DNA from: a virus
Taxonomy: Duplodnaviria; Caudoviricetes
Virus record (IMG/VR): IMGVR_UViG_2690316366_000001
Location: 32,001-96,000 of that record
Direction: 5' to 3' (one strand)
DNA length: 64,000 bases
Below are positions 26,129-40,127 of the stretch, piece by piece; position 1 is the stretch's first letter, and each line of letters opens with the position of its first letter. The notes below the pieces were generated by a model. That model had not been told where the DNA came from. It saw nothing but the letters and a program-made list of their open reading frames with translations, and made no database searches. The position numbers and the translations under genes are program-made.

Positions 26129-26137
26129 GAGGGAGCA

Positions 26138-26419
26138 ATGTCGAGAGAGCCGACATCGCGCGCTGACGCGCTCCGTGCCCAGCGGGAAGCTAACTGGGAG
26201 CGGAATCAGGCACTGAAGCGCGAACTCGACGCACGCGACGCCGTAGCAGCGGCGGCCGCTGCCAAGGATGAAACGCCGGCGCCGAAGCGGGCACCGACGA
26301 AGAGGGGCAGAAGCGCGGAAGGGTCCGAAGGAGATAGCCAGCGCACTAACTCTGGATCTCTCCGATCACTCGATAGTGCTTGCGGGGTAAAACGCCGACC
26401 TCGGAACGTCCGCGGATGA
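26138..26419 (+). CDS. hypothetical protein
   Basis: GGAGG RBS; 3' end overlaps a convergent gene. Confidence 0.45.
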   Translation: MSREPTSRADALRAQREANWERNQALKRELDARDAVAAAAAAKDETPAPKRAPTKRGRSAEGSEGDSQRTNSGSLRSLDSACGVKRRPRNVRG

Positions 26420-27332
26420 ACGGACGCCACCAGTATATCCCGCTCTTGCGGACCTTGAAGTGGCCCCGAACCTCATGCTCTCGTATCTCCGCATCGGATA
26501 GGTGCTGGGCCTCGGCACTTGCGGACTGTCGGGATGAGAGTTTGATCGTTACAATCGAATGACTGAGACGCTTTGGCTTGGTGCCGGTGCGCTTCCGATT
26601 GATCTTTGAAAGGTCGGCATCGACTATGTCGATGGCATTGCGGCTGTTCAAGAGCGCAATTGCTGCGATTACTCGCTTGCTCTCGCCGACCAAATTCTCA
26701 GCTGCTGAAGCCTCTAATTGCTTTAACTGCAACGGTGGAACAGTTTTGATTAATGCACCGTAGAAACGGCAGGGGGTGGCCGACTCTAGGCTGGTCAGTG
26801 CTTTGATTGCATCCCACTCACGTTCGTTGCCGCTAAACCTCTGGACGTATTCATCGGATATCTCCCATTTGGATCGAGGCACCCAATCGGGGAATTGCCC
26901 GCTGGGACAGATAAATGAACTCAAATATGAAAGGTTCAACCGGGCGGACTCGTCGTGCAAGCCTCTCGCGACCGCAGAGGCTCGGGAGTGCAGCCAAACG
27001 TAGCTAGCCAAAATCAGCCCTTCTTCGGGCGTTTCAAGGAGCACGCCGAACTTGTCGGGCATCGGCAAGCTTTCAGTTGCCTCGCTGCGGTGAAGTGACC
27101 TGCGCTCAGACCATTCGAGCCAAACCGTTGGGAAAGGCAGTCGAACCATCGGAACCGCTGACAGCAGGCTCGACGGCTTTGCGAAAGCAACTTGGCTCAT
27201 GGCCTCGGCGGAGGTATCGCTGAATAGAAACCGCTGGGCCGTCCTGAGTTGGGTGGCAAGTTGGGTGATGGCTCCGCGAAACTGGCGATCGGCTGCAGAT
27301 CCGACATTCTCGAGAACGATATCGGCTAACAT
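26346..27332 (-). CDS. hypothetical protein with C-terminal HxVRGH...WxxPxxRG motif
   Basis: 328-aa ORF, lower GC; HEVRGHFKVRKSGIYWWRPFIRG. Confidence 0.75.
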   Translation of the reverse strand: MLADIVLENVGSAADRQFRGAITQLATQLRTAQRFLFSDTSAEAMSQVAFAKPSSLLSAVPMVRLPFPTVWLEWSERRSLHRSEATESLPMPDKFGVLLETPEEGLILASYVWLHSRASAVARGLHDESARLNLSYLSSFICPSGQFPDWVPRSKWEISDEYVQRFSGNEREWDAIKALTSLESATPCRFYGALIKTVPPLQLKQLEASAAENLVGESKRVIAAIALLNSRNAIDIVDADLSKINRKRTGTKPKRLSHSIVTIKLSSRQSASAEAQHLSDAEIREHEVRGHFKVRKSGIYWWRPFIRGRSEVGVLPRKHYRVIGEIQS

Positions 27333-27338
27333 GCGGTC

Positions 27339-27668
27339 CTACTCGCCCTGTTCGATATCGGCGTCCGCCGGCATCTGCCTCAGCTTCTGATAGGGAAATT
27401 CACCGAGATCCGGATGCAGCCGGTCGTGCTGGATCATCGCAGCCGCAGCCATGCGAGCTGTCCCGTGCGCGTTCGGCAGCGTCATCATGGTCAGCGCTAT
27501 CGGCACCCAAGTCGGGATGTCGTTCCCCCCGTTGGCCCATTTCGTGACCGTGGTAAGGTTCTGGCACCAGATCCTGGCGAATGCGGGCACGGACATGCCT
27601 TGCTTGGCCAACTCGGCCTTGAAGTCCGCGGCCGAGATCTTGCGGTGAACAAATCGGGGTGGGGACAT
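27339..27668 (-). CDS. XRE-like HTH regulator near the distal end of the leftward array
   Basis: ISAADFKAELAKQGMSVPAFARIWCQNLTTVTKWANGGNDIP. Confidence 0.75.
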   Translation of the reverse strand: MSPPRFVHRKISAADFKAELAKQGMSVPAFARIWCQNLTTVTKWANGGNDIPTWVPIALTMMTLPNAHGTARMAAAAMIQHDRLHPDLGEFPYQKLRQMPADADIEQGE

Positions 27669-27761
27669 CTGGAGATTCCTTTCCGGTTGGGCACAATCGC
27701 CCGGAATCGGCCGTAGCCGAGGGGGTAGCACAAAATCGATCGTAGCCGGGAGTCCCGGCCG

Positions 27762-28133
27762 TCAGGTGTAGTCGAGCGGATTGACCATCTGCTTGCCGAC
27801 GGTCATCACCGGCGGGATGACGCCGCCGCGCTTAATCGCTGCCAGCCATTGCGCCTCCGTTCCCGTGAAGCCTGGTGCAGCCTCCACATGATGGTCGGCC
27901 AGCCATTTGGCGAGGGCCTCGGGCGAGGCGCACGGCGGCGAAACCGGTGTGCCGGCGCTGGTGGTCTCGTATAGCTGCCAATGCGTTCGCTCCGCGGCTG
28001 GCCAGGCCGGCATGCTGCGCGCGGGATCGGGCGAGGGCGCATCCGGGCCGGACTCGAGCAGCGGGACATATCGGCCGCCGGAGTTGCGGGGGTGCTGCCA
28101 GTCAGCGGGCACTTGCCTGACGGTTCTTGACAT
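27762..28133 (-). CDS. phage hypothetical protein
   Basis: VPADWQHP...WQLYETTSAGTPVSP...PEALAKWL; GAAAGGAG RBS. Confidence 0.75.
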   Translation of the reverse strand: MSRTVRQVPADWQHPRNSGGRYVPLLESGPDAPSPDPARSMPAWPAAERTHWQLYETTSAGTPVSPPCASPEALAKWLADHHVEAAPGFTGTEAQWLAAIKRGGVIPPVMTVGKQMVNPLDYT

Positions 28134-28169
28134 AGCAATCTCCTTTCAAAATCGATCGTATCCGGGGGA

Positions 28170-28442
28170 TCAGAACAGCGAGCCTTGCGCGGGCGCCGGC
28201 GGCTCAGGTTTAAGACGTCCGAGGTGCTCGACCGTCTCGCCTATGATCTGGTCGCGATCATCATCGATCAGCAGCCAACCATCATCGCCGCCCGCTGGAT
28301 CGTAAACCACGAAGTCACCGCCCCAACGCTTGAAGATGCGTTGGGCCACCAGGCGCACGGCCGCGGGAACGTCCGTTGCGGCGTCGAACCCGGCCCGCGT
28401 CACGATCTTGAAGCCGGCCGCCGTCAGTATCTGTTCGGTCAT
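28170..28442 (-). CDS. hypothetical protein
   Basis: 90-aa ORF coupled to the upstream gene. Confidence 0.65.
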   Translation of the reverse strand: MTEQILTAAGFKIVTRAGFDAATDVPAAVRLVAQRIFKRWGGDFVVYDPAGGDDGWLLIDDDRDQIIGETVEHLGRLKPEPPAPAQGSLF

Positions 28443-28633
28443 GTTCGCTGGCCCTTCGCTCGTTCAAGGGCCGCTTGCACCTCCCAAGCCTGATAGATCG
28501 CCCCTCGGGCTTCCGTAAGCTTCTCCCGAACCTCTGGCCGCAATCGCTGGTCATTCGAGTCCATGACGCGCGTGAGGCCGTCCAGGAGCCGGTTATAGGT
28601 GTCCCAGTGGAAAGGGTGCTTGCGTGCTGTCAC
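28439..28633 (-). CDS. hypothetical protein
   Basis: GTGA/ATGA coupling on both sides. Confidence 0.6.
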   Translation of the reverse strand: MTARKHPFHWDTYNRLLDGLTRVMDSNDQRLRPEVREKLTEARGAIYQAWEVQAALERAKGQRT

Positions 28634-28941
28634 CGCCGCGCCCTCGCGGCTGCATGAACCTTGCGGGCGAGCTCGTCGCGGATCGCGCGGCCAACGTCGG
28701 AGTCCTCCATAGCGGTCAGCCAAAGGCGTTCATCGTCCTTGACGACGGCCGCCGCGGCTTCCTCCAGCGTTTTGCCGGCCATGAAGTGCGGCGCCACGCG
28801 GGCAATGAAGGTCTTTTCGTCGTCCGTCAGCTGACGGCCCGGAGCCGGCGGCGCAGCGAAGGCACCTCCGAGCGCTTCGAGGACGCCGGCGCGCGCGCCT
28901 TCAACGGGACCGGAATAGATTTCAGTCTTCTTGGCCGTCAT
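28630..28941 (-). CDS. hypothetical protein
   Basis: GGAGG RBS; start MTAKKTE. Confidence 0.65.
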   Translation of the reverse strand: MTAKKTEIYSGPVEGARAGVLEALGGAFAAPPAPGRQLTDDEKTFIARVAPHFMAGKTLEEAAAAVVKDDERLWLTAMEDSDVGRAIRDELARKVHAAARARR

Positions 28942-29024
28942 GGGTGAACCTCCGTTCAAATCGGTCGTAGCCGAGGGGGTGATGGGAAATCGATCGTAGC
29001 CGGGGAGGTGGGCGCAGCCGGGGG

Positions 29025-31385
29025 CTATCCCGGCGGCGGCCCATCGATCACGACGAGCGCTGTGTTGACCATGGTACCGGCGGCCTTGAATGACCCCGCG
29101 GGCAGAGGGCGGTATTCCACCGCCATCGGTTCGAGCTTCGCCCGCTGGCGCGGACCGTCGGCGCAGATCGCGACGAGCCGGCCACGAGGCTTCAAGAACT
29201 TCCGGCCATGCGTGATGTGCTTGATGTCGGCGCCGTTCTCAAATGGCGGGTTCATCAAGACAATGTCGAAACGCTCGGCCGGCGGGTCGAAGTCCAGGAA
29301 GTCGCCGCAGTGGACGAACGTGCCGGGGAACGCTGCGCGCAGGTGCTCCGAAAGTTTTGCGTTGATCTCGACCGCCACCACCTGCAGACCATCGGCGCAG
29401 TTGCGCGCAGCTTCGATCAGTGCGCCCGTTCCGGCGCTCGGCTCCAAGATGCGCTGCCCGGGCCGGATGTCGGCCGCCTCTGCCACGTCCGCGGCGAGTT
29501 CGCCCGATGTCGGGAAGAGCTGAGGCGCAACGACGACTTGCACGCCGCCGCCTTTCAGCATCGCCCGCATGGCCTCGAAACTATCCGCCGCCGTCGGCGC
29601 GGGCAAATCGGCCGTATCCGGGACCGGGGCGAGAACGCGCGGCCGAAGGTCCGCCGGCACGGGCTCGGCCTCGAACGGCACGCCAGCCAGTCCGCAGAAT
29701 TGCCGCCAGGCGGTCGCCTCGTCGTCGCACCAATCTGTAACGTGCTGGCCGAGGCCAACACGGAATTTGCCGAGTCCGGTGATGATCTCGGCGCCCGCGC
29801 GCTGCGCCTCCGCCTTGGCATCGCCGAGGCGCCGCGGCTCTTCCGCGGGCGCAACCGGGACCAGCGCCGCCACGGCCTCGGGCTCGTCCTGGGCCTCCCT
29901 CTCGACCGGTGCGCCGATGATCGCGCCGACCGTTGCCAGCATGGCGTCAAGATCAACCGCGGGCGGCGCGACATACTCGGCGACGAATTCGGCCGGCTCG
30001 GTTGGCTCCGGTGCTGGCGCGATCTTGGGCGGATCGACCCGCTTTGCATCCGTGATGTAAACTTGGACCTTCTTCCAGTATTCACCGGGCTTCGGCATCT
30101 GGCGGACGCGGTGCGCGCTGTGGGTCTCGGTCTCCTTCACTTTGCCGATATAGGGGAAATCCGAGAACTGCGGGCGCGCCTTCCATTCGGCCTCCGTCAT
30201 CTCGCGGAATCCTTCGCCGGGATAGTTGCAGATCGGCGGGAGCTTGGCGGCGGACTTCGCCGCGGCGACGTTCTCCGCGCTCGGCGGCCGATAATCGCTG
30301 ATGCTCTCCACGCTCCATTGCGCGCGCTTGGAGCGCGAGCCAGTCGGCGCGGTCGTCGTCATGCTGGAAACCGAACCGTTGGCGCCCTTGTTGACCTTCA
30401 GCACGGTAAGCCACTCGTCGCAGCGGCTCGTCTGCACCTGACCGCCGACCGCGAAGGCGAAGCGGTCCGCAAGCGGGTTGGCGGTCGCCTCCGCTCCGAT
30501 CTGCTCGGCCAGCATCGCCCGTTCATAGGCCAGCCGGTTGTCATAGTGCGCAATCCAGCGGGCGCGCCGAGGCCCGGAGCGCTCCAGGCTCGGAATCGCA
30601 ATCGCGGCGGCCTGCGCGGCGGTGATGACGTTCCCATCAATCGCCGACCAAAGGCCCATTGGCCCCTCATACTGCGAGGCCGGCGGGTCGCGCGGATAAT
30701 CGGCCAACGGAAACGACATCGACCAATAACCGCCGACATTGGCCACGGCCAAGCCGGCCGCGCGCTGCTTCTCGGGGTCATTGATGCCGGCGACGATTTG
30801 CCAGGCCTTCAGCTGCCTTTCGGTCTCCGCCTGCTGGCGCTCCACCTTCCGCTTGTCGGACTCAATGCCCTTGATGCGGCGATGACGCACCGCCGGCAGT
30901 TCCTTGTATTTCGCATGAGCGATTGCGCCGGCCGCGCGCGCAGTCCAATAATTCGAGGTGTCCCAGAGCCTGACCGCCTTGCGCATGTTGCTGTGTATGC
31001 GCTCTTGATCCTTGCGGGCACGCTTCTCGCTGTGGTGCCCAACCAAAATAGGCTGCCCCCCATAGAAGCGCTCGGCGATCTCATCGGACACTTTCCGCGC
31101 GCTCTCGGCTTCCGCCAAGCGCTTTTCGCTATACCCCTCGAAGCGGTCGGCGCGCTGCTCGGCGCGGTCGGTCAGCGCGGTGTCTTCGTCGCCGATCTCG
31201 CCACACATCTCAATCAGCAAGTCTTCGGCGCCGGGGCTCCAGGTTGGTTTGACGAACAGTTCTTGACGCGGCGCCCACTTGAAGCCGGCGGCCTTCACGC
31301 GCGCGTAATCCTCGGCGTCGAGCCGGTGCGCCGGATAAAGGCGCAGCTTGTTGTCATCGGGCGAATAGGTGGCGGAATGCTGCAT
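29025..31385 (-). CDS. DUF3560-domain protein fused to a class I adenine methyltransferase
   Basis: ATYSPDDNKLRLY; GQPILVGHHSEKRARKD; QLFPT, ILEPSAGTG, MNPPF. Confidence 0.88.
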   Translation of the reverse strand: MQHSATYSPDDNKLRLYPAHRLDAEDYARVKAAGFKWAPRQELFVKPTWSPGAEDLLIEMCGEIGDEDTALTDRAEQRADRFEGYSEKRLAEAESARKVSDEIAERFYGGQPILVGHHSEKRARKDQERIHSNMRKAVRLWDTSNYWTARAAGAIAHAKYKELPAVRHRRIKGIESDKRKVERQQAETERQLKAWQIVAGINDPEKQRAAGLAVANVGGYWSMSFPLADYPRDPPASQYEGPMGLWSAIDGNVITAAQAAAIAIPSLERSGPRRARWIAHYDNRLAYERAMLAEQIGAEATANPLADRFAFAVGGQVQTSRCDEWLTVLKVNKGANGSVSSMTTTAPTGSRSKRAQWSVESISDYRPPSAENVAAAKSAAKLPPICNYPGEGFREMTEAEWKARPQFSDFPYIGKVKETETHSAHRVRQMPKPGEYWKKVQVYITDAKRVDPPKIAPAPEPTEPAEFVAEYVAPPAVDLDAMLATVGAIIGAPVEREAQDEPEAVAALVPVAPAEEPRRLGDAKAEAQRAGAEIITGLGKFRVGLGQHVTDWCDDEATAWRQFCGLAGVPFEAEPVPADLRPRVLAPVPDTADLPAPTAADSFEAMRAMLKGGGVQVVVAPQLFPTSGELAADVAEAADIRPGQRILEPSAGTGALIEAARNCADGLQVVAVEINAKLSEHLRAAFPGTFVHCGDFLDFDPPAERFDIVLMNPPFENGADIKHITHGRKFLKPRGRLVAICADGPRQRAKLEPMAVEYRPLPAGSFKAAGTMVNTALVVIDGPPPG

Positions 31386-31429
31386 GTGTTTTCATCCTTT
31401 CAACTTGCGCACAATCGCGCGGGGCTGCT

Positions 31430-31459
31430 TCTCTAATTTGTGTCGGCCGAATCTGTCAA
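31430..31459 (-). promoter_or_regulatory. putative sigma70 promoter for the DUF3560-methyltransferase sub-operon
   Basis: Perfect TTGACA (31459-31454) in a spacer, followed directly by GATTC; -10 box weak. Confidence 0.5.
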
Positions 31460-31514
31460 GCGTGTTTGCAAAATCGGCCGTAGCTCGGGGGTGGAAAATC
31501 GATCGTAGCCGGGA

Positions 31515-32417
31515 CTACTGCGCAGTGCCGACGCGCAGGAGTGCCAAGGCGTGATACTCGCTGCCCTCGGCGGCCTTGGCCTTTACGAATGCCTCGGCCT
31601 CGTCGTCGCGGCTCACGCCGTCGCGGACAAATATTGAAGACTCGGCGTCCGCCTGAATCTCAAGCGTGCCGGTGTCGCTGTTCTCGAACAGGCCCCATCC
31701 TTCCGAGCAAGCGCGGTCATCCTGCCCGATGAATTGCGCCGCGGGCGCAGCCGGGAGGCCGGCGGCCGCTCGGCGATAGGCCTCGGCCGCCTCGTCAGCG
31801 TCGGAGACCGCTTCCGCAATCGTGCCGTCCTCGTCGCTGAACATGCCGCGCATCTGGTCAATCTGATGGGTGCAGGCGTCGAGCGCGCCGGCCAGGTCGC
31901 GGGCGATCTGGCGCCAGTCCTGCGCAGGCGCAACCGGGACTGTGCCGCCGACAATCTCCAATTCCTCGACCCGGAAGAAGTCGCCGCGCATTTCGCCGAC
32001 GCGCTCAAAATAGGCTTCCGCTAGCTCGTCAGGATCGGCCGGCTTGTCCTCGTCCATCCGTGCGGCCCAATTCTCGGCCGCGATCTCACGGCGCCAGGCG
32101 CGCGCCGTGTCGCTGTTAGGATAGAGGCGCGTTTCGTCGCCGTGCCGGGTTTCATGGGTAGCCACGGCGAGCGGTGGCAGCGTCACGGTCTGCTCTTCGA
32201 TGATGCAGGGGCCGTCAACGGCATCTTCCCATAGCTCGCTGATATTGTCCGCCGTCGCGGCCTCGACCGCGGCCAGGCGCTCGGGGGTCCGCTTGAGGAT
32301 GTCGCGCAGGCTCGTGCGGACATATTCCGCCGCCTCGGACTGCGTGGCGTGCACCGTGGTTTCGGTCCCGCAGTTGTCGCCCTCAGTGGTGCAAGTCCAA
32401 ATCGTGATTGTGCTCAT
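31515..32417 (-). CDS. acidic multi-segment hypothetical protein
   Basis: 300-aa ORF; GAAAGGAG RBS; Asp/Glu-rich. Confidence 0.75.
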   Translation of the reverse strand: MSTITIWTCTTEGDNCGTETTVHATQSEAAEYVRTSLRDILKRTPERLAAVEAATADNISELWEDAVDGPCIIEEQTVTLPPLAVATHETRHGDETRLYPNSDTARAWRREIAAENWAARMDEDKPADPDELAEAYFERVGEMRGDFFRVEELEIVGGTVPVAPAQDWRQIARDLAGALDACTHQIDQMRGMFSDEDGTIAEAVSDADEAAEAYRRAAAGLPAAPAAQFIGQDDRACSEGWGLFENSDTGTLEIQADAESSIFVRDGVSRDDEAEAFVKAKAAEGSEYHALALLRVGTAQ

Positions 32418-32812: not shown

Positions 32813-32952
32813 TTGGCTTTCGTCCTTTCGTTTTACGCACTATCGCGCAGATGGTGGAGCGACCGCGGCCAGGTGCGCGCGTCATCCACCGCGCAAAATC
32901 AGCCGTAGTCGGGAGGTGCGCCGCCGGCCGGGAAATCAGCCGGCCCCGGGGG

Positions 32953-33670: not shown

Positions 33671-33756
33671 GTCGTTTAACTCCTTTCGAATTGCGCACCA
33701 TTGCGCCGAAAAAATCGGCCTAGCCGACGGATTGGGGAAATCGGCCGCAACCGGGA

Positions 33757-34170: not shown

Positions 34171-34240
34171 GGTCTGTTTTCCTTTCCGGTTGCGCACAAT
34201 CGCGCGTGTTGCATTCCGTGAGGCCGAGGCGCGCCGCTTC

Positions 34241-34438
34241 TTAGTGCAGTTCCCAGGCGCGCAATTCGACGCCTGAACGCTTGCCGCGCTTGAATTCGTC
34301 GCAGCGGCGCGCGTATTCCTCGGCCTCGGCGGCAATATCAAACCGCCGCGATAGTTCGCCCCAATTGTTGAATTCGCAGCGATCAACCAGGCGAAACTTT
34401 GCGCCATCGGGCAAGATATCGAATCCATAGGCTCGCAT
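34241..34438 (-). CDS. hypothetical protein
   Basis: 65-aa ORF with GGAG RBS. Confidence 0.55.
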   Translation of the reverse strand: MRAYGFDILPDGAKFRLVDRCEFNNWGELSRRFDIAAEAEEYARRCDEFKRGKRSGVELRAWELH

Positions 34439-34453
34439 TGCTGGCGACTCCGA

Positions 34454-35551
34454 CTAGCTGGCGCGGATCGCGCAGAGAGGCGCAACCGGGAGGGATGGCC
34501 GAGGCGCGCCGAGCGATGACGAGGCCAGGAAGCGCGCGGCGCGGGAAGGCGCAACCGGGATAGGGGCCGCGGAGTTGGGCGCGGGCGCAACCGGGAGGGA
34601 ATCGGCCGTATCCGGGAGGGAGGCCGCCGCGGTTTCGACGCCGGCGGAATTGTCTGCGACAAGCCGCAACCGCGGCGCCTCGGCCTCGGCCTTGGCTGCA
34701 GCTGCGCGCGCCTCGGCCTCTTGCTCGGCGCGCCGGCCGGCCTCGGCCTCGGCCTTTGCCGCGGCTTTGGCCTCGGCCTCGGCCGCGCGAACGATGGCGC
34801 GGCGCCGCGCTTCAATTTCCAGCCATGCCATACCGCCGAGGCGCGACCGATAGTCTGCAATCTGCGCGCCGAGCTCGGCCGCGCGTTCCTCGTCGGCGCC
34901 GGCCAAAATCTCGGCCTCGGCCGAGGCAATGAGGTAGTGCCCGCGGTAGAAGTCGGCGCGCGTCAACCCGCCGGCCTCGGCGGTTTCCGGCAAGGCCGAG
35001 GCCTCGGCGGAAAGTGCGACATGATCGAAACGGCCGCGGCGATATTCGGCCGTCCGCGCGTTGCATTCCTCGGCCGGATATTCGGCGCCGGTAGCGTCAC
35101 AGATGGCGGAAATGATGGACGGGACCGCGACACAATCGGAACCGATGGCCGAGGCTTTCCCGAATTCCCGCGCGATCCGCGCGCGGTAGAAGGCAAAGGC
35201 AACACGCAAGCCGCGGCCGATATTGACCGGCTTGCCAGGCAGTGAAACCGCTGGCGCGCGTACCACGGCGCCGCATGCGAACGTCACAACGATGATAGGT
35301 GACTTGCCTAGCTTTTTCGTCGCGCTTGCAGGAATGACGTAGTCCGCCCATGGATCCGCCGCGCCGTCCGGGATCTTGGCCGCGCCGGATCCAGCTTTCT
35401 GCGCCGGCAATGCGAGGCGCAGCAAATCGGCAATGCCGCGCCAGTTCGCGCCGTCGGGATTCGCGGTCGCGTTGTCATAGGCGAGGATCGCCAGCGCGCG
35501 CCGTTCCGTTGCCTTTGCGGCCTTGGCCGCGATCAAATCAACTTGTTGCAT
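34454..35551 (-). CDS. Ala-rich hypothetical protein with AEAEA helix and PVAP tail
   Basis: Motif A + GAAAGGA; start MQQVDL; 365 aa. Confidence 0.7.
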   Translation of the reverse strand: MQQVDLIAAKAAKATERRALAILAYDNATANPDGANWRGIADLLRLALPAQKAGSGAAKIPDGAADPWADYVIPASATKKLGKSPIIVVTFACGAVVRAPAVSLPGKPVNIGRGLRVAFAFYRARIAREFGKASAIGSDCVAVPSIISAICDATGAEYPAEECNARTAEYRRGRFDHVALSAEASALPETAEAGGLTRADFYRGHYLIASAEAEILAGADEERAAELGAQIADYRSRLGGMAWLEIEARRRAIVRAAEAEAKAAAKAEAEAGRRAEQEAEARAAAAKAEAEAPRLRLVADNSAGVETAAASLPDTADSLPVAPAPNSAAPIPVAPSRAARFLASSSLGAPRPSLPVAPLCAIRAS

Positions 35552-35615
35552 GGTCCATTGTCCTTTCTGATTTGCGCACGATTGCGCCGAGAATTGAGGG
35601 AAGGCCGAGGCCAGG

Positions 35616-35914
35616 TTAGGCCGTAGCTTTGGCGCGGCGCCGCGCGTCAATCGCGGCGCGTATCTCTTTCTTGAACCGGGGCGCATAACGGCCGTTGAAT
35701 GCGCGCAATTCAGAAAAGGCGATATCGGCCGCGGCCTTGGCAATCCGGTATCGCGGATCGAATTTAATTCGGTCCGGAGTCAGTCCCATCGGACCGCGCG
35801 CCGGAATCCCATTTCGGCCGCAAGGCCTTCTGTCACGGCGCCGAGGCGCGCGCCGGCCTCTTTCATCCGATTATCCAACTCGGCCGCGGCGGCTTGGAAT
35901 GCTGCAAAATCCAT
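35616..35914 (-). pseudogene. frameshifted small gene (apparent 1-nt deletion near 35808)
   Basis: MDFAAFQAAAAELDNRMKE...EMG joins IPARGPMGLTPDRIKFDPRYRIAK...FKKEIRAA in another frame; span 299 nt. Confidence 0.55.
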
Positions 35915-35922
35915 CGGTGCAC

Positions 35923-36111
35923 CTAGACGCTTTCGTCAAAGCGCGCGGCCTCAAAGTCGCGGCTTGCCTGTTCTGCCTCGGCGCCGGTAAGCATGCGGCG
36001 GCTTGTCGGATAATAGAACGCGCGCGTTCCGACCGGGATGAAATGCCCGTTGCGGTCATTGGCCGGATATTTGGTAATGATCCATCGCGGATCGCCGCCA
36101 TAGCGTGCCAT
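35923..36111 (-). CDS. hypothetical protein
   Basis: Motif A + GGAAAGGA; start MARYGGDPRW. Confidence 0.7.
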   Translation of the reverse strand: MARYGGDPRWIITKYPANDRNGHFIPVGTRAFYYPTSRRMLTGAEAEQASRDFEAARFDESV

Positions 36112-36169
36112 TGTAGTCTGTCCTTTCCAGTTTGCGCACAATCGCGCGAATGAATTCGACGGCGCCGGC

Positions 36170-36508
36170 CTAGTAACCTGCGGCCTCGGCGGAATAGTCG
36201 CGCTGGCCAGTCTCGGCGATTTGCCAGTCCGGAAAGCGCGCGCCGTTTTCGGTATCGTTGTACCCCGCCGAGAGCCTATCGGCCGCGCAGCTGCAAACGC
36301 CATCGCGGGTTATGCGTCCATCGCAGTCCGCGCCATCGTTGCACCATTCGTTAGTCACGGTTTGCCCGTCGAAAGAAAAGATATTTGACTCGCGCGTCCA
36401 TCCTTCGTCCGTTCTGGCGCCGTGCGAATGGTGCAACGTTTGGCCAGTCCGCAACGCGATACGGACAAGGCCGGATTTGTGATAGTGCCAAAAGCGCGCT
36501 GTTTTCAT
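36170..36508 (-). CDS. hypothetical protein
   Basis: TDEGW...DGADCDGR...QRDYSAEAAGY. Confidence 0.7.
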   Translation of the reverse strand: MKTARFWHYHKSGLVRIALRTGQTLHHSHGARTDEGWTRESNIFSFDGQTVTNEWCNDGADCDGRITRDGVCSCAADRLSAGYNDTENGARFPDWQIAETGQRDYSAEAAGY

Positions 36509-36521
36509 GGTGCGGTATCCC

Positions 36522-36851
36522 TTACGGAAGGCGGTTGAAAACGGAATGATAGGCCGAGGCCTCGGCGATGCATTCCCGCGCGGCCTCCAGATTGCGAGCG
36601 CGGCTCATGGGCGAGAGTTTCGCCGCGCGCCGATAGTAAGCCGCCCAGTGCAAAGCCTCGGCCGCAAGCGCGCGGCGCGGCCGGCAAGATAGGCGAGAGG
36701 TACGCAAGGCAACCGGACCGGCCGCGCGTTCTGCGCGCGCCGTGAATTCGATTCCGTTACAGACAATCCAGAACGTTGCCACGTTGTGGCGCCGGACGCG
36801 CGCCTCGGCGCGTAGCGCGGAAATGGTGCGGCGGTATGCATCGCGATTCAT
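36522..36851 (-). CDS. hypothetical protein
   Basis: ATGA-coupled to the upstream gene. Confidence 0.6.
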   Translation of the reverse strand: MNRDAYRRTISALRAEARVRRHNVATFWIVCNGIEFTARAERAAGPVALRTSRLSCRPRRALAAEALHWAAYYRRAAKLSPMSRARNLEAARECIAEASAYHSVFNRLP

Positions 36852-37252
36852 GCTGCGCGCTCCAGTTCGCAAGCCGCGGTCCATCCGGTTGCGCGATCAT
36901 AGGAGGCCGCGCGCGCGATCATTGGCGGCTTGCGCAATTCGTCATCCGGCGGAATCACGCCATAGCGTTCCGGCGCAGCGTCAAGTTTCGCCATGGCTGC
37001 AGCATGCTCGGCCGCGCGCCACACATTGAAGGCCGCGACGATATGCGCCGGTAGCGGTTCAGCGTATCGGACAAGCATGCCGATTCCGGTCCGCATGGCG
37101 CGGCGGACGTCATCGCCATTTGCTATCGATAGCTCATAGTCAGAAACGGAATGACGGATGGAAACTTCATAGCTGCCGGTTTCATCTGTCACGCGATAGT
37201 AAACGGTCCCCATGTAGGAACACGTCCAAGCGAATTGCGGTTTGCGGTTCAT
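36848..37252 (-). CDS. hypothetical protein
   Basis: Motif A + GAAAAAGG; start MNRKPQF. Confidence 0.7.
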   Translation of the reverse strand: MNRKPQFAWTCSYMGTVYYRVTDETGSYEVSIRHSVSDYELSIANGDDVRRAMRTGIGMLVRYAEPLPAHIVAAFNVWRAAEHAAAMAKLDAAPERYGVIPPDDELRKPPMIARAASYDRATGWTAACELERAA

Positions 37253-37290
37253 GGTCGAAAGCCTTTTTCGATTGCGCACAATCGCGCGGG

Positions 37291-37533
37291 TTAGTTGGCC
37301 AGGTTCCTAGCTTCACGGTTGAGCGCGGAAACCTCGCGACGAAACGCCGTGATTCCCTTTTCTCCGATATCCAACTTTCCGCCGGTCGGAGTCGGCAGAT
37401 ATCCGACATAACCGCGAATGTTGAAATACAGCTGGCCAGTCCGCGCGCCGTTCAAGAGAACGTCATAGCGCGGCGTCTTTTCCAGCGTTTGGCAACCGCG
37501 GCGGGTTTCCTGCAATTCCAATTTCCAAGGCAT
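37291..37533 (-). CDS. hypothetical protein
   Basis: Motif A + GAAAAGGA. Confidence 0.7.
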   Translation of the reverse strand: MPWKLELQETRRGCQTLEKTPRYDVLLNGARTGQLYFNIRGYVGYLPTPTGGKLDIGEKGITAFRREVSALNREARNLAN

Positions 37534-37626
37534 TGGCCGTTGTCCTTTTCGAGTTTGCGCACAATCGCGCTTTGGTCCGCTTTGGCGTTCCGTTGTACGG
37601 CGCGCGCGGCGCCGTACAGGGGAAAG

Positions 37627-37938
37627 TCAGAAGGCGGCTTGATTGGGCGGCTTAGGCAATCCGGAAAGCGCGCTTAACGTTTGCGCAACAGACTGCGCGG
37701 CCTCGGCCGTTGGGCAATCGGTAATTGCTTCGCAACCGCCGGCTTTGAGATGGGCGTAAACGGTCCAAAACTCGGCCTCGGAATCCGGGATTCCGCCATT
37801 GGTGAAAGTGAACCCGGTTTCGTCCGTTTCCGTGTTGCATCCGCCGACTTCAAGCCAATCAAATGGCGACCAATCCGGCGCCGTGTTACCAGTGCAGCAA
37901 TTGAAATAGACGGCGCCGTCAAGTGACACTGCAGGCAT
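37627..37938 (-). CDS. acidic hypothetical protein
   Basis: GAGGAG RBS; LEVGGC...AEFWTVYAH. Confidence 0.7.
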   Translation of the reverse strand: MPAVSLDGAVYFNCCTGNTAPDWSPFDWLEVGGCNTETDETGFTFTNGGIPDSEAEFWTVYAHLKAGGCEAITDCPTAEAAQSVAQTLSALSGLPKPPNQAAF

Positions 37939-37950
37939 TGCCCTAACTCC

Positions 37951-38055
37951 TCAAAGGCAAGAATTCAGAAAAGCACGCTTGCCATTGCGGTCCGCGGCGC
38001 GCCGAGTCCGCTTGTCCATCGGCCGGCGCTCGGAATCATGCTTGCGATACTTCAT
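37951..38055 (-). CDS. 34-aa basic peptide
   Basis: Motif A + GGAAAAGGA; MKYRKHDSERRPMDKRTRRAADRNGKRAFLNSCL. Confidence 0.55.
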   Translation of the reverse strand: MKYRKHDSERRPMDKRTRRAADRNGKRAFLNSCL

Positions 38056-38147
38056 AGCTCGTTTTCCTTTTCCAGTTTGCGCACAATTGCGCGGTTTCGG
38101 CGGTTTGTCGGTTATGCCGTGACGTGCACGGCATAGGCTGCAAACCG

Positions 38148-38456
38148 TTAGCGGCGATCCTGCAGCGCGCTGGCGATGGTATCGCCAAAGCCTAACAGGA
38201 TCGAAACGGAATCCGATTGGGCCAGGTCGGCGCCAGTTTCGCAACGAATGACGGCCGGCGCGGTCCCGCGCCATTCGCGGCGAATGATCGAATTTGCGAA
38301 ACGATGGTGCGCATAGTCGGGATTCGATAGGAGCACGGCGCAATGTGCTGCGCGCTGCATTGTCCGCCTATCAGCTGCAGCCATCCAAGCCATATCGAAT
38401 TCGTCGCGCAGTGCATGCCGCGCCGCGTCCAGTGCTACAGGGTTTCCGATTTGCAT
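38148..38456 (-). CDS. hypothetical protein
   Basis: GAGGAG RBS; start MQIGNP. Confidence 0.6.
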   Translation of the reverse strand: MQIGNPVALDAARHALRDEFDMAWMAAADRRTMQRAAHCAVLLSNPDYAHHRFANSIIRREWRGTAPAVIRCETGADLAQSDSVSILLGFGDTIASALQDRR

Positions 38457-38469
38457 TGTTGCGCGCTCC

Positions 38470-38655
38470 TCAATTCGCGATTGCGAGCGCAAGCCGCGCG
38501 GTGCGGATATGGCCGAGGCGGTCCGCTGGAATGGTGCGATCGGCCGAGGCCAGGGTTTCGGCATTGGACACAAGCCGCAATGCGAGTGTGAGGTTTCCGA
38601 GGCGGATCGCCGCGGCCGCATGATGCAACAGGCTTCTAACGGTTGAGTTTGTCAC
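38470..38655 (-). CDS. hypothetical protein
   Basis: Motif A + GAAGG; GTG start. Confidence 0.55.
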   Translation of the reverse strand: MTNSTVRSLLHHAAAAIRLGNLTLALRLVSNAETLASADRTIPADRLGHIRTARLALAIAN

Positions 38656-38706
38656 TGCTCTTGCCTTCAAGTTTGCGCACAATCGCGCGGGTTGAGCCGG
38701 ACCGGG

Positions 38707-38880
38707 CTAGCGGCGCGGCGGACTGGAACGGCGCGCGCGGCGCCGGATCATGAGGCGCCGAGGCTTTGCCGGCGCGTAAAGGAAGGGAGCTAGGCCAGCC
38801 CAGCAAAGGGTATAGATCGCCGCAACAATCAAACCGGCAACCGGTGGGTTAGCTGCGCAAAGGGAAAGGAAGGCGTGCAC
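38707..38880 (-). CDS. small membrane protein
   Basis: VAGLIVAAIYTLCWAGLAPFLY transmembrane segment plus basic tail. Confidence 0.45.
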   Translation of the reverse strand: MHAFLSLCAANPPVAGLIVAAIYTLCWAGLAPFLYAPAKPRRLMIRRRARRSSPPRR

Positions 38881-38890
38881 GGCGCGGCCC

Positions 38891-39127
38891 CTAAGCATTC
38901 GGCCGCGATTGGTCGGCGGACACTTCGCACGATATGACGCGAAAGCACGCAATGCCTTTGGCGTTCAATTCGCGATACTTGGCCAACGAAATACGCTCGG
39001 CAAAGCGCGCGCGGTCTTTGGCACGGTCGCAGGCATGATCAGCGGAATGGGAAAAGAGGCGGATATGATAATCGCAACCGGTTGCGATACGGCGGACAGT
39101 GACTTGATAGGCGAGGGTCTTTGCCAT
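38891..39127 (-). CDS. hypothetical protein, first gene after the array promoter
   Basis: Motif A + AAAAGG; start MAKTLAY. Confidence 0.65.
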   Translation of the reverse strand: MAKTLAYQVTVRRIATGCDYHIRLFSHSADHACDRAKDRARFAERISLAKYRELNAKGIACFRVISCEVSADQSRPNA

Positions 39128-39174
39128 GTCGGCGGCCTTTTGAGTTGCGCACAATCGCGCTTTCCGTTCGCCGC

Positions 39175-39203
39175 ACATGCCTATAAAGCGCGGCGCGTGT
39201 CAA
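39175..39203 (-). promoter_or_regulatory. putative leftward promoter of the gene array
   Basis: TTGACA (39203-39198) preceded by an AT-rich segment, about 40 nt before the first motif A. Confidence 0.55.
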
Positions 39204-39276
39204 TCCCTTAATTCGCTATTCTGTGAAAAAAGATAGCGGTTAGACCGGCCGGACTCACACTAGAGGGAATTCCGGC

Positions 39277-39510
39277 CTATTCCTGCAGAATGGCGTTTAT
39301 CCGCCCGAGGCGAAAGGCCTCTTGCATGGGTACCGCGGGCGAAAGGCCGGCCGCAACGGCGCGACACTTCAAGGCGAGTTCAGCGCTACCGCCTTCCGCG
39401 CGTACAGCCGTGACAGTGTTAGGCGAGATAAACAGCGCTGCAGCTGCGGCGCCATTGGATAGGCCTAGCTCCTCTTGCCAGGCCTTGAATTCGGCCGCGC
39501 TGATTCGCAT
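39277..39510 (-). CDS. HTH regulator at the proximal end of the array
   Basis: MRISAAEFKAWQEELGLSNGAAAAALFISPNTV. Confidence 0.7.
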   Translation of the reverse strand: MRISAAEFKAWQEELGLSNGAAAAALFISPNTVTAVRAEGGSAELALKCRAVAAGLSPAVPMQEAFRLGRINAILQE

Positions 39511-39763
39511 TGCGGCGCCGGCCGAGGCATAGGCGCGGCCTTTGCCAGCTTGCCTCGGCGCCGAGTTATCCGCCTTCGCTGCAGGCATGTGCTTTCCCTC
39601 TTGCGTGAGTCCGGAACGTTCATTGCCGGGTTACCTATCACAGAACAGGGAAAGGCCGAGGCCGCGCCGCGCCGTCATGCACCGCCGAGTAGCGGAACCG
39701 GATTTGACACTCCGACTCCGATTATGATTCAGAACAGGCATTCGGCGCATTGTCGCTGCAGCC

Positions 39764-39793
39764 AACCCGCCGCGGGAAACCTCGGCGGGTTTT
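39764..39793 (+). terminator. intrinsic terminator-like hairpin
   Basis: AACCCGCCG-cgggaaacct-CGGCGGGTT followed by T-rich sequence. Confidence 0.6.
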
Positions 39794-40051
39794 GCGTTTC
39801 TGGCCTCGGCGCCTCGGCCTCGGCGGATGGACGCAAGGCCGCAACGTCAACCGCAACACGCCACTAGGTCGAGCTAGTGAGAGGGAAGCGCGGGAGGTTA
39901 CCGCGCGCGGCGCGGGCGCCAGCGGCACCCATGCGTTAGGCCAGCGCGGCAAGGCCAGGTCGCTCCGATTGACGCGCAACGCGCCAGCGCCCGCCGCATG
40001 ACGCGCGCAGCACCACGCCAGCCATCCGGACCGGCCAGCGCCTCGAGGCCA

Positions 40052-40127
40052 AGGGGTATGGGGTCGGAAAGTCTAGGAATCGACGGGACCCCCTACCGCA
40101 CGGGGGCTCATTCGCACATTTTTTTTT
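40052..40127. other. candidate cos (packaging end) region
   Basis: GGGGTATGGGGTCGGAAAGTCT...ACCCCCTACCGCACGGGGG...T-run just upstream of terS. Confidence 0.5.

Follow-up and report, generated by a model that had tools for sequence, protein, structure and literature searches.

Plasmid leading regions are, according to passages of PMC11541004, enriched in co-oriented orphan methyltransferases (MTases), SSBs and anti-defence genes. In Bcep176, the nearest characterised phage, 91 bp separate the start of terS from one end of the linear record, and an HNH gene lies 122 bp from the opposite end; this is the usual HNH/end/terS adjacency, and it agrees with an earlier note on the present DNA, which had taken HNH normally to abut cos/terS. 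The phage analysed here differs in that an array of genes separates HNH from the end. The repeated motifs A and B of this array find their nearest described analogue in the SAS/ESAS of Cluster K mycobacteriophages.

The window, a stretch of 64,000 nucleotides from a prophage whose host lineage is Bradyrhizobium, carries about 25-26 credible, mostly small genes at 26346-39588, all on the minus strand and opposite to the HNH gene and terS between which they lie. No convincing plus-strand gene is interspersed among them. The array of about 25 co-oriented leftward genes described in the earlier note is thus confirmed, and the layout is the same in nine of nine relatives. Several listed array ORFs were discarded as wrong-frame artefacts (pI about 12, in DNA of 63% GC). 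Only two contig-level DNA runs contain parts of the stretch. The setting comprises:

25784..26128, plus strand: HNH endonuclease gene, left flank (phrog_589, 4.5e-9; orthologue in 9/9 records)
39704..39794, plus strand: TTGACA (39704-39709), about 55 nt, terminator-like hairpin with TTTTG (39766-39794)
40053..40127, no strand assigned: cos candidate, G-rich conserved block and T9 run, directly upstream of terS
40186..40641, plus strand: terS, right flank (phrog_12540, 3e-25; phrog_309 'terminase small subunit', 1.8e-7)
40841-42526: terL (phrog_9 at 9e-110)

The array genes, from left to right, with the number of arrays in which each occurs, are:

26346..27332, minus: F57, 328 aa, last gene of the run (phrog_20769, unknown function, 3.7e-14)
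27339..27668, minus: F3, 109 aa, core (9/9), mean column identity 80%
27762..28133, minus: F5, 123 aa, core (8/9), motif B then SD directly upstream
28170..28442, minus: F7, 90 aa (7/9)
28630..28941, minus: F29, 103 aa (3/9)
29025..31385, minus: F2, 786 aa, DUF3560 and DNA-methyltransferase fusion, core (9/9)
31515..32417, minus: F6, 300 aa, very acidic (net charge -35, pI 4.3), modular (7/9)
32462..32812, minus: F18, 116 aa (4/9)
32953..33147, minus: F38, 64 aa, acidic (2/9)
33392..33670, minus: F17, 92 aa (4/9; G012 too)
33757..34170, minus: F13, 137 aa, ArdC N-terminal domain only (5/9; G011 too)
34241..34438, minus: F28, 65 aa (3/9)
34454..35551, minus: F10, 365 aa, Ala/Glu-rich helix (6/9)
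35616..35914, minus: F12, split by a frameshift into 44-aa and 57-aa ORFs (phrog_7560, 1.3e-6)
35923..36111, minus: F22, 62 aa (MARYGGDPRW...), frame set by orthologues
36170..36508, minus: F16, 112 aa (4/9)
36522..36851, minus: F27, 109 aa, basic (3/9)
36848..37252, minus: F15, 134 aa (4/9)
37291..37533, minus: F37, 80 aa (2/9)
37627..37938, minus: F9, 103 aa, acidic (6/9; phrog_23974, 4e-9)
37951..38055, minus: F1, 34-aa Arg/Lys-rich micro-protein, in all 11 phages examined
38148..38456, minus: F53, 102-aa ORF, unique, uncertain as a gene
38470..38655, minus: F26, 61 aa, GTG start (3/9)
38707..38898, minus: F25, small hydrophobic protein (3/9)
38891..39127, minus: F24, 78 aa (3/9), first gene with motif A
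39277..39588, minus: F0, 103 aa, first gene of the module (9/9; G011 too), no motif A

Pfam and PHROG scans of 20 array proteins left 16 without a match, and a PADLOC/NCBIfam scan of the array unknowns found no fitting family, PADLOC returning MTase models only. F57, unique to this phage (a cluster of one; the close relative in run X1 has no coverage of it), matches nothing in Pfam, NCBIfam, PADLOC or PDB, and F3 has no family or PDB match. Structure prediction, which the earlier note had proposed for each ORF, was run on F6 (pLDDT 57) and F10 (pLDDT 65); the models are of low or moderate confidence and gave no fold match for either, nor a PDB or Atlas match for F10; the C-terminus of F6 matches phrog_38215 (4.7e-5). 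F12 is 99 aa in relatives and is broken here by a 1-nt deletion in a G-run, as compared with G003, and the F1 peptide is conserved while its third positions vary synonymously. F0 is probably an HTH protein, judging from weak matches that are all to HTH families (HTH_17 in 5/9 members, Xre-like-HTH in 4/9, all below curated cut-offs) and from XRE regulators in the PDB (E 0.17).

Both members that the earlier note had recognised hold up. F2 matches DUF3560 (PF12083, 1.2e-32), its C-terminal part matches methyltransferase families, and it also matches PADLOC type II and orphan MTase models; F13 matches ArdC-N (PF08401, 2.3e-6, 28.2 bits against a cut-off of 22.6) and phrog_7245 'anti-restriction protein' (8.5e-7). 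By sequence comparison, two genes show real kinship with plasmid leading regions, the DUF3560-MTase and, in relatives, DUF932: F2 is 50-54% identical to conjugative-plasmid proteins over 80% of its length, and F20, a variable array gene (4/9 arrays), is 45-47% identical to the DUF932 protein of plasmid pALIDE201, where a co-oriented run reads ssb - DUF932 - ... - DUF3560 - kleA - radC. The likeness proposed in the earlier note stands for these pALIDE201 neighbours. The ArdC-like protein has only the N-terminal ssDNA-binding domain of ArdC and lacks the C-terminal protease domain. A link of any kind to anti-defence extends to only three of the ~25 genes here, or four counting DUF932 of relatives.

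All nine related provirus records carry the array between HNH and terL in opposite orientation, with terL identity of 44-93% and the arrangement kept even at 44-45%. An HNH orthologue (65-87% identity) stands next to the array in each, terS orthologues are present in all nine regions, and the array is also found in G011 and G012; it occurs in 1 of 61 Bradyrhizobium genomes searched. Clustering of the nine arrays, the locus comparison across prophages that the earlier note had suggested, reveals a conserved backbone with variable small genes in between. Of 440 homology breakpoints, 26% fall no more than 20 nt from a motif; randomly placed positions do so in 7% of cases and, over 500 trials, in at most 12%. 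Breakpoints generally lie nearer gene boundaries (median 35 nt) than motifs (median 151 nt).

In the relative G011, a linear contig of 104,614 bp (CheckV 100% complete), 486 bp separate F0 from the left end and 640 bp separate terL from the right end. Separate alignment of each end to the window shows one running up to 40096 and the other beginning at 40108. This places the terminus, from the contig ends of a single relative aligned across diverged sequence, at about 40097-40114, inside a block conserved in seven phages, 70-90 bp upstream of terS. Since these ends map beside terS, the array would, by homology, sit at one physical genome end and read inward. The cos-like sequence that the earlier note had seen by the array corresponds to the G-rich block with T9, and because this cos candidate adjoins terS the block would form the HNH-side end, as had been anticipated for the genome after cos cleavage. 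Between F0 and cos, the 39704..39794 element is kept in seven aligned phages with a covarying stem, and may be a rightward (late?) promoter with a short terminated leader.

The earlier note did not mention the intergenic repeats, the array's most distinctive feature, which prove array-specific and fall both before and behind genes; the array-confined, strand-specific motifs A and B are new here. A search for intergenic repeats gave 11 matches against a shuffle mean of 1.99, with none of 100 shuffles reaching 11. Motif A, GCGCGATTGTGCGCAA, is a small predicted hairpin, a 5-bp stem with an AUNG tetraloop, 3-6 nt ahead of an extended SD (GAAAGGA) and ATG. The window holds 12 copies, every one on the minus strand and with a start codon about 20-27 nt downstream:

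27687..27702, minus: variant GGGC..GCCC (compensatory pair), ahead of F3
31405..31420, minus: ahead of F2
32833..32848, minus: GCGC..GCGT, G.U-compatible
33691..33706, minus: motif A
34190..34205, minus: motif A
35572..35587, minus: motif A
36132..36147, minus: motif A
37272..37287, minus: motif A
37555..37570, minus: motif A
38077..38092, minus: stands after a hairpin with a stem that covaries from phage to phage
38673..38688, minus: motif A
39145..39160, minus: first in the array

Across the nine arrays, with up to three mismatches, 91 copies lie on the coding strand and 3 on the other; in the 108-kb record all eight matches are inside the array, and in an 8.3-Mb Bradyrhizobium genome 10 of 11 are within one array. 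The motif also occurs in G011 and G012 (GC 54-55%). In the aligned copies 98.9% of stem cells are paired, against 97.1% in shuffles (0/500 reach 98.9%), two pairs are changed on both sides (1/500 shuffles), and the fifth pair switches between G.U (55) and A-U (32). The hairpin appears in the MFE fold of 7/8 leaders, with folding energies no better than those of shuffles (z about 0). The stem is nearly invariant, its main compensated variant is one orthologous site, that ahead of F3, and sliding the pairing partner by two columns still leaves 93% paired, owing to the GCGC repeats; support for the hairpin is accordingly thin.

Motif B, GGCTACGNNCGATTT, follows stop codons, the majority of copies lying 4-50 nt past one, singly or as a tandem pair. 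It is likewise array-confined and strand-specific (108 copies on the coding strand, 1 on the other; 8/8 matches in the 108-kb record inside the array). Its copies here are:

27704..27750, minus: tandem pair (27704-27721, 27733-27750)
28149..28166, minus: single
28958..29004, minus: tandem pair (28958-28975, 28987-29004)
29605-29622, minus: in-frame within F2, inter-domain linker
31471..31513, minus: tandem pair (31471-31488, 31496-31513)
32896..32913, minus: single
33738..33755, minus: single
34599-34616, minus: in-frame within F10

As for initiation signals, an AAAGG-type SD precedes 13/25 array genes against 1/46 other window genes (Fisher p about 1e-6), and 23/25 array genes start with ATG. 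Two promoter candidates stand out:

39198..39203, minus: P1, array promoter candidate, TTGACA -35-like hexamer, T-rich stretch upstream
31454..31459, minus: internal candidate ahead of F2, TTGACA, N18, TAGAGA, 9 nt, motif A

The TTGACA that the earlier note had placed at 39203 is present on the minus strand, and TTGAC(A/G) with a T-rich upstream stretch recurs 38-43 nt upstream of the first motif A in 9/9 arrays; the promoter scan, which uses the E. coli consensus, did not call P1. A promoter-like arrangement similar to the internal one lies ahead of F2 in G002, G003, G004, G005, G006 and G008.

Taken together, the block is best read as an accessory module that is conserved in, and specific to, a lineage of ~100-kb temperate cos phages of Bradyrhizobium and its relatives, most likely an immediate-early establishment and counter-defence operon on first-entering DNA, an explanation that we hold as a whole, early role included, at somewhat better than an even chance. 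The array fills the gap between the packaging-associated HNH gene and cos, so cleavage at about 40.10 kb would make it the HNH-side virion DNA end, with all of the ~25 genes reading inward; by analogy with lambda, that end would enter first. F0 would open the module, and host-type promoters, TTGACA at 39203 and the internal one at 31459 before the methyltransferase, would drive it early in infection; if these are unrepressed, array expression would be expected in the lysogen as well. Every cassette would have its own expression signals, with motifs A and B acting in RNA: a stem-loop at the 5' end, attenuation or processing at motif B and a strong site of initiation would keep each cassette independently stable and strongly translated. 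The motifs may also provide short homologies for cassette swapping, with fast-turnover small genes interspersed in a backbone of F0, F1, the DUF3560-DNA methyltransferase, the ArdC-N ssDNA binder, F6, F9, F5, F7 and F3. The products would act against host defences.

Host-type promoters with an HTH gene of the module's own, variable cassettes with a 328-aa gene at the far end that is unique to the strain, and an orphan or self-protecting methyltransferase, which suits a resident prophage too, would also fit a lysogenic-conversion or moron-type region. Such a region would be expressed from the prophage to the lysogen's benefit (superinfection exclusion, defence or host physiology), cos adjacency reflecting lineage architecture only. 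We consider this unlikely: no PADLOC defence family appears except the MTase models, the identifiable genes are of types found in plasmid leading-region-type arrays, and inward orientation from the genome end is strict in all nine phages and in the end-mapped G011. Like the lambda nin or b regions or the Mu semi-essential region, the array might be an ordinary early or delayed-early accessory operon, with no special tie to entry order or defence and with functions in DNA metabolism, recombination or host takeover. The 16 unmatched proteins are compatible with such an operon, an ssDNA-binding domain and a methyltransferase also suit DNA metabolism, and the phage replication module carries two further methyltransferases. 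Yet the array lies apart from that module, on the opposite strand and near the genome end, has two adjacent genes in common with a plasmid leading-type array and has dedicated expression signals found nowhere else in the 108-kb record, which leaves this reading with little probability.

Motif A might instead work on DNA, as an oriented operator that silences the array by blocking elongation, resembling a Cluster A 'stoperator', or as a promoter for a dedicated polymerase or sigma factor. Its 16 bp are strongly conserved, strand-specific and set in short intergenic gaps, its GCGC-N6-GCGC dyad would suit a dimeric protein too, F0 is a probable HTH protein, and hairpin covariation is thin. This proposal is nevertheless doubtful, because the motif is found nowhere else in the record, hence neither at the immunity region nor upstream of F0, it keeps a fixed distance from the SD (3-6 nt) but from no promoter, and G.U/U.G variants and G.U to A-U alternation only make sense in RNA. 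No sigma-70-type gene was found in the record (control positive in 10/14 genomes); a single-subunit RNAP search gave no match there, nor did its positive control. Insertion of a separate mobile element (satellite, ICE fragment or integron-like cassette array) between HNH and terS, suggested by the plasmid-related genes, the somewhat lower G+C of the 36-40 kb portion and the repeats at cassette junctions, is very improbable: place and orientation are the same in 9/9 records (terL down to 44%) and in G011 and G012, no integrase, relaxase or recombinase family occurs among the 20 array proteins scanned (Pfam, PHROG), and no convincing direct repeats flank the array. The integrated element with att sites of its own that the earlier note had named as a refuting case is rejected on the lineage conservation and the lack of a recombinase, and the interpretation given there is, overall, partly supported.

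The probable first-entry end, the plasmid-type counter-defence genes and the repeated signal together suggest that this block may be to the phage what the leading region is to a plasmid. As an early counter-defence operon on first-entering DNA, the array would correspond, among dsDNA phages, to the leading regions of plasmids, and can be likened to the early regions of T7 and T5.

Gene calling by codon bias, together with translations and conservation in relatives, yields about 25-26 genes that can be considered credible in the interval 26346-39588, every one of them encoded on the minus strand; the raw ORF lists were crowded with wrong-frame ORFs because the window has a G+C content of 63%. 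An earlier note had read from the sequence an opposite-strand array of mostly small ORFs between HNH and terS, with an ArdC-like protein and a DUF3560-methyltransferase among them, and gene calling, Pfam and PHROGs confirm this layout:

Left flank, plus strand: replication module (sliding clamp, two DNA methyltransferases, primase, DnaB), whose last gene is HNH at 25784-26128
29025-31385, minus strand: DUF3560 + methyltransferase protein, 786 aa, family F2 (Pfam)
33757-34170, minus strand: ArdC-N protein, 137 aa, family F13 (PF08401, 28.2 bits against a cut-off of 22.6)
Right flank: terS at 40186-40641, terL at 40841-42526, then structural genes

These two proteins are the only ones matched by Pfam among the 20 array proteins scanned. 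PHROGs labels the ArdC-N protein 'anti-restriction protein' and finds the methyltransferase domain of the DUF3560 fusion similar to domains of giant phage proteins. The protein of family F0 (103 aa) has weak matches, all to HTH families and all under the curated cut-offs, and is probably an HTH protein. F1 is a basic, Arg-rich micro-protein of 34 aa, found in 11 of 11 phages and under clear protein-level constraint. F6 has a net charge of -35 and a pI of 4.3, which makes it very acidic, and F9 and F38 share this character; such acidity is compatible with DNA mimicry without proving it. Searches of the PDB by sequence gave no significant match for F6, F10, F57 or F3, nor for the F0 and F3 profiles; the ESM Atlas offered no usable lead for F6 or F10, whose AlphaFold models are weak (pLDDT 57 and 65) and returned no Foldseek match in the PDB at E <= 0.001; and NCBIfam and PADLOC provided no family for the array proteins of unknown type. 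A paralogous relationship between F0 and F3 is not claimed, the hhalign probability being only 22%, over 39 columns.

The 328-aa gene beside HNH (F57) was found in this phage alone when nine arrays were clustered. F12 (35616-35914, minus strand) is broken near ~35811 into ORFs of 44 and 57 aa by a G-run that is 1 nt shorter than in the related record G003, where the orthologue has 99 aa. The gene may be a pseudogene with a frameshift, the sequence may contain an error, or the site may be slippery. Outside the array, the two DNA methyltransferases of the replication module (15252-17177 and 19419-20741, both plus strand; phrog_116 and phrog_67) bring the number in the phage, with F2, to at least three. 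The ~2.2 kb between DnaB and the pre-HNH genes (22200-24400), with a G+C content of 0.50-0.52 and no confident gene call, may be a recently acquired segment.

Related arrays were recognized by motif A, a repeat that precedes start codons on the coding strand of the array. The exact repeat occurs in viral contigs at 40 loci on 30 contigs, nine of which carry at least two exact copies on one strand; terL and HNH were mapped in eight of these nine, which together with the window's own record, a 108,554-bp IMG/VR provirus in which the window spans bases 32001-96000, makes nine arrays for comparison. In 9/9 records the array lies between HNH and terL, on the strand opposite to both, in a gap of 11.3-14.8 kb; identity to the window is 65-87% for HNH and 44-93% for terL. 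One array was found in Bradyrhizobium embrapense SEMIA 6208, which names the host lineage. Protein clustering reveals a backbone of fixed order, F0 (9/9), F1 (9/9), F9 (6/9), F10 (6/9), ArdC-N (5/9), F6 (7/9), DUF3560-methyltransferase (9/9), F7 (7/9), F5 (8/9) and F3 (9/9), with variable small genes in between. Scanning 20 array proteins with Pfam and PHROGs detected no integrase, relaxase or recombinase family in the block. The alternative that the block is a separate integrated element thus fails on two counts, the conservation of the array in every record compared and the lack of these families. Two distant relatives, G011 (loci L170 and L171; 104.6 kb, linear) and G012 (locus L172; 94.1 kb, with terminal repeats in the assembly), have a terL 44% identical and a G+C content of 54-55%; they retain motif A, F1 and parts of the backbone, and the system is therefore older and wider than Bradyrhizobium prophages.

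The premise that HNH abuts cos and terS is correct where ordinary phages with this type of packaging are concerned: in the linear record of Bcep176, the nearest characterised phage (terL 55% identical), terS starts 91 bp from one end and an HNH gene is 122 bp from the other. In the phage studied here HNH, terS and terL are all present, but HNH lies 11-15 kb from the putative end. The 600-bp spacer between F0 and terS holds a block conserved in seven phages; a G-rich stretch opens it at 40053, and a T9 run at 40119-40127 closes it. G011, a metagenomic viral contig of 104,614 bp that is of linear class, has no end repeats and is rated 100% complete, carries an F0 homologue at the left end (487-717) and terL at a distance of 640 bp from the right end, so both ends fall inside the terS-F0 spacer. 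When the ends are aligned to the window separately, the left one reaches 40096 and the right one begins at 40108; in an alternative register, the break is near 40113. The contig ends of this one relative are good but indirect evidence for a cos at ~40.10 kb, 70-90 bp upstream of terS, because a circle of 104 kb broken at random would seldom be cut there and a circular assembly would show end repeats. A cos at this position would make the array the HNH-side end of the virion DNA, with all genes reading inward; homology to the G011 ends thereby supports the proposal of the earlier note that the array forms one genome end beside cos. The lineage is one of phages with ~100-kb genomes. In lambda, the genome end packaged last is ejected first, and by analogy we infer the same order for the array-bearing end.

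An F0-profile scan for further contig ends near F0 returned 10 loci (8 in records already analysed), none at a contig end. Public listings name no RNA run with the stretch; two public DNA runs, available as contigs, contain 0.33 and 0.13 of its sampled words. One of them, X1, is a close relative in ~100-nt pieces that leave 26068-27201 and most of 37.4-41.3 kb uncovered; over the array region, the contigs of X1 and of the other run, X2, display neither ends nor a terminus.

Between F0 and the putative cos, a plus-strand TTGACA is followed after ~55 nt by a terminator-like hairpin with TTTTG (39704-39794); the promoter-like site and the hairpin are kept in 7 aligned phages, and the stem covaries. 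This element resembles a promoter that fires rightward into a short, terminated leader before cos/terS, and may serve as a late promoter under antitermination control or encode a small RNA. The word CACAGAA(C/T)AG or TCAGAACAGG is present near the F0 start (39639-39646, plus strand), near the plus-strand promoter-like site (39729-39738, plus strand) and just upstream of the TTGACA at 39203 (~39225, minus strand), and more distant arrays have different words at the equivalent places. These words may be operators of the HTH protein F0.

Motif A, with the consensus cc-GCGC(G/A)AT(T)GTGCGC-AA, is present in 12 copies in the window, on the minus strand without exception. Each copy is followed by 3-6 nt, GAAAGGA, a further 6-10 nt and ATG, for a distance of about 20-27 nt to the start codon. 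All 8 matches with at most one mismatch in the 108-kb record are inside the array, and in the nine arrays, with up to three mismatches, 91 copies are on the coding strand versus 3 on the other. The geometry is unchanged in the 4 copies of G011 and the 9-10 copies of G012. In the 8.3-Mb genome of B. embrapense, 10 of the 11 matches are inside one 7-kb array; among the 61 Bradyrhizobium genomes searched, which include one unpublished genome (G029), the array is found in B. embrapense only and 1-4 scattered matches occur in 27 others. Given this concentration in the array, motif A is not a signal the host uses. Its spacing or sequence also misfits what we take to be the sites of sigma-54, CtrA, LexA and CcrM and the nod box. 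A genome-wide scan of species representatives yielded at least 120 loci, nearly all of them single chance matches; among the loci listed, an array is present at L147 only.

As RNA, motif A could fold into a 5-bp stem with an AUNG loop. Among 92 distinct copies (3 without a Shine-Dalgarno site, SD, were left out), 98.9% of stem cells are paired versus 97.1% in shuffles (0/500 as high), and two stem pairs are changed on both sides (1/500 shuffles). The fifth pair is G.U in 55 copies and A-U in 32. The chief compensated variant, GGGC..GCCC, is a single orthologous site ahead of F3; pairing is still 93% when the partner is slid by 2 columns; and the hairpin lies within the MFE fold of 7/8 leaders, total folding energies being equal to those of shuffles. 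The context upstream varies between a stop codon, motif B (a second repeat, found after stop codons), covarying hairpins and TTGAC(A/G) promoter-like sites, the sole fixed spacing being the distance to the SD. Ahead of the methyltransferase gene, TTGACA-N18-TAGAGA ends 9 nt before motif A, and the hairpin would thus stand at the extreme 5' end of the mRNA. Action of motif A on DNA, as an operator or promoter, is less likely than action on RNA. Outside the array there is no copy at the immunity region or elsewhere in the 108-kb record; the position of the motif is bound to the SD, a translation signal; variation of the G.U type occurs; and no sigma-70-type gene is present in the record. The search for RNA-polymerase families carries no weight here, since its control was itself without a match.

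A distinct hairpin of 9-10 bp (38093-38145, minus strand) lies upstream of the motif A that precedes F1, with equivalent sites at loci L041-L048, and one of the same type lies upstream of the motif A preceding a DUF932 gene in relatives. Its stem varies in sequence among phages with complementarity kept; it is flanked by the conserved gatttgcagcc and aaccggcaaaccgccgaaacc and is not followed by a U-run.

Motif B (consensus c(c/t)C(c/t)C-GGCTACG(G/A)(C/T)(C/T)GATTT) shares a CGATT core with motif A. The nine arrays contain 108 copies on the coding strand versus 1 on the other, and 8/8 matches in the 108-kb record are inside the array. Most copies are positioned 4-50 nt past a stop codon, many as tandem pairs 25-29 nt apart; next comes motif A in some cases and, in the others, TGAAAGGAG with a start immediately behind the copy. 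A hairpin interpretation was set aside: the 'CTC...GGCC' version allows a 5-bp stem with a UACG loop, the 'CCC...GATC' version does not, and variation is without covariation; motif B is therefore treated as a sequence signal. Two copies in the window are in frame, the first of them retained in the linker of the DUF3560-methyltransferase fusion in 9/9 arrays:

29605-29622, minus strand: in-frame motif B in the F2 linker before the methyltransferase domain, reading ..PDTAD..
34599-34616, minus strand: in-frame motif B in the C-terminal tail of F10, reading ..PDTAD..

Their presence suggests that adjacent cassettes became fused in the past through the junction between them. Homology breakpoints between arrays fall within 20 nt of a motif in 26% of 440 cases versus 7% for random positions; they track gene boundaries generally, and more tightly than motifs. 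An X2 joint from 27752 to 29021 beside motif-B copies, with a depth of 2.8 and 22 letters on the shorter side, is too weak to serve as evidence.

The array also stands apart in its start sites: an AAAGG-type extended SD precedes 13/25 array genes versus 1/46 other window genes (Fisher p about 1e-6), and 23/25 array genes start with ATG. Scans based on E. coli signals, uninformative for a Bradyrhizobium host, gave 1 promoter-like site versus 3.1 expected with the promoter consensus and 21 terminator-like sites versus 17.1 expected. An Rfam E-value scan of 25500-41000 produced two chance matches of snoRNA type only.

Host RNA polymerase probably switches the module on from promoters near the entering end, and F0 probably controls it. 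Together with the extended SD, motif A would give every cassette stability and strong translation as a unit; motif B would flag cistron ends via attenuation, processing or protein binding, and the common junction sequences would let related phages swap cassettes. Arginine-rich RNA-binding peptides of the lambda N type bind boxB. F1 may be speculated to be a motif-binding factor, because it is most faithfully linked to motif A and resembles such peptides. In a bolder version, which we regard as improbable, the array would be a true leading-region counterpart with its own RNA-based expression: F1 would bind the motif-A hairpin, motif B would be a mini-terminator or processing site, made in its stronger version of a C(UACG)G-type hairpin and a U-run, both would time, antiterminate or boost swappable cassettes on the first-entering DNA, and the unknown cassettes would be a reservoir of new counter-defence proteins.

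If the block enters first and counters the defences of the host, temperate cos phages would join conjugative plasmids under the 'leading region' principle, and the HNH - array - cos position together with motifs A and B would offer an inexpensive way to find new anti-defence genes in phages of rhizobia. A physical genome end would also be placed for a ~100-kb Bradyrhizobium phage lineage, in which 11-15 kb are lodged between HNH and cos with the packaging module unbroken. Going by the available texts, the motifs are a second, independent case of 'start-associated' signals; the only earlier example described there, that of Cluster K mycobacteriophages, has been without known function since 2011. 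Motif A can form a small hairpin, keeps a constant spacing to a ribosome-binding site of unusual strength and always occurs alongside one tiny basic protein, so the question of function is directly testable.

Among known systems, an integron cassette array differs in having an integrase gene and attC recombination sites at the cassette ends; the 20 array proteins scanned include no integrase family, and the repeats of the block are direct and short, unlike the imperfect inverted repeats of attC type. In the Cluster A stoperator system, the site is also the repressor's operator at the early promoter and is spread genome-wide, whereas motif A is confined to the array in the 108-kb record. In acr-aca operons, anti-CRISPR genes are accompanied by a conserved HTH repressor; the array similarly has variable small genes behind a strong promoter and a conserved HTH-type gene (F0, with sub-threshold HTH matches), but F0 precedes the promoter instead of closing the operon, and no known Acr or Aca family was detected in the array. 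ArdC is an anti-restriction protein of conjugative plasmids; its N-terminal ssDNA-binding domain (PF08401) is present in the 137-aa array protein, which is N-domain only, without the C-terminal metalloprotease domain. In T7, the region of gene 0.3/Ocr has early genes separated by RNase III sites, and T5 has its first-step-transfer region. The array would share with these early regions end-proximal genes read inward, host-polymerase transcription, anti-restriction functions and conserved intercistronic RNA signals; it differs in belonging to a temperate cos phage and in having intergenic signals much smaller than RNase III sites. We know of no stepwise or transcription-driven entry in temperate cos phages.

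Kinship to plasmid leading regions, as the earlier note proposed, holds for the DUF3560-methyltransferase and DUF932 and is limited to a minority of array genes. The DUF3560-methyltransferase has full-length homologues in conjugative plasmids of Betaproteobacteria (50-54% identity, 80% coverage), its methyltransferase part matches >5000 plasmid records, and pALIDE201 contains the co-oriented run ssb - small ORF - DUF932 - small ORFs - DUF3560 - kleA - ... - radC; F20, a variable family (4/9 arrays, absent from the window), is 45-47% identical to the DUF932 gene of this plasmid. As the main text of one study describes, plasmid leading regions are enriched in orphan methyltransferases, SSBs and anti-defence genes, all on one strand (Samuel et al. 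2024, PMC11541004). Because of these homologues and traits, the analogy in gene content and layout appears real for that minority. The words ArdC and DUF932 are absent from the main text of PMC11541004; the supplementary tables of PMC11541004 and PMC12699233 may list DUF3560, DUF932 or ArdC families. Judged by listing, none of the papers found to mention 'DUF3560' is a functional study.

Like a leading region, the array consists of co-oriented (~25), mostly small uncharacterised genes on DNA thought to enter first, with an orphan-type methyltransferase and an ssDNA-binding protein (ArdC-N), joined by DUF932 in relatives. The carrier, however, is a dsDNA cos phage rather than a conjugative element transferring ssDNA, and its entry order is an extrapolation; terminase, portal and tail genes are present in the element, a prophage, and no relaxase or transfer families were found among the 20 array proteins scanned. 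Lacking oriT and relaxase, and apparently also an Frpo-type ssDNA promoter, the array is not a member of the leading-region class. Its expression signals are the array-specific motifs A and B, and its intergenic gaps measure 25-130 nt, less than the 50-350 bp of the regions that were examined for ssDNA promoters according to the main text of PMC11541004. In its working, the array may resemble either a plasmid leading region or the T7/T5 early regions.

The closest likeness to motif A described in the available texts is the start-associated sequence (SAS) of Cluster K mycobacteriophages, a 13-bp consensus that contains the SD and lies 3-7 bp from the start codon (PMC3203893). Both are short asymmetric repeats in one orientation, just before the starts of non-structural genes with ATG preferred; they number about a dozen per phage genome, are almost missing from that of the host and are kept across subgroups before unrelated genes, and each has a second associated repeat (ESAS in Cluster K) upstream in a subset. 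The function of SAS/ESAS was still unverified in 2025 (PMC12699233), and the authors report little hairpin support for ESAS in these texts (PMC3203893; PMC12699233). By contrast, motif A is unrelated in sequence, is a 16-mer 3-6 nt upstream of a separate SD and could form a hairpin, for which there is some covariation. Motif B, which comes after stop codons, is repeated directly rather than inverted. The host here belongs to the proteobacteria, and the repeats do not extend beyond a single 12-kb module.
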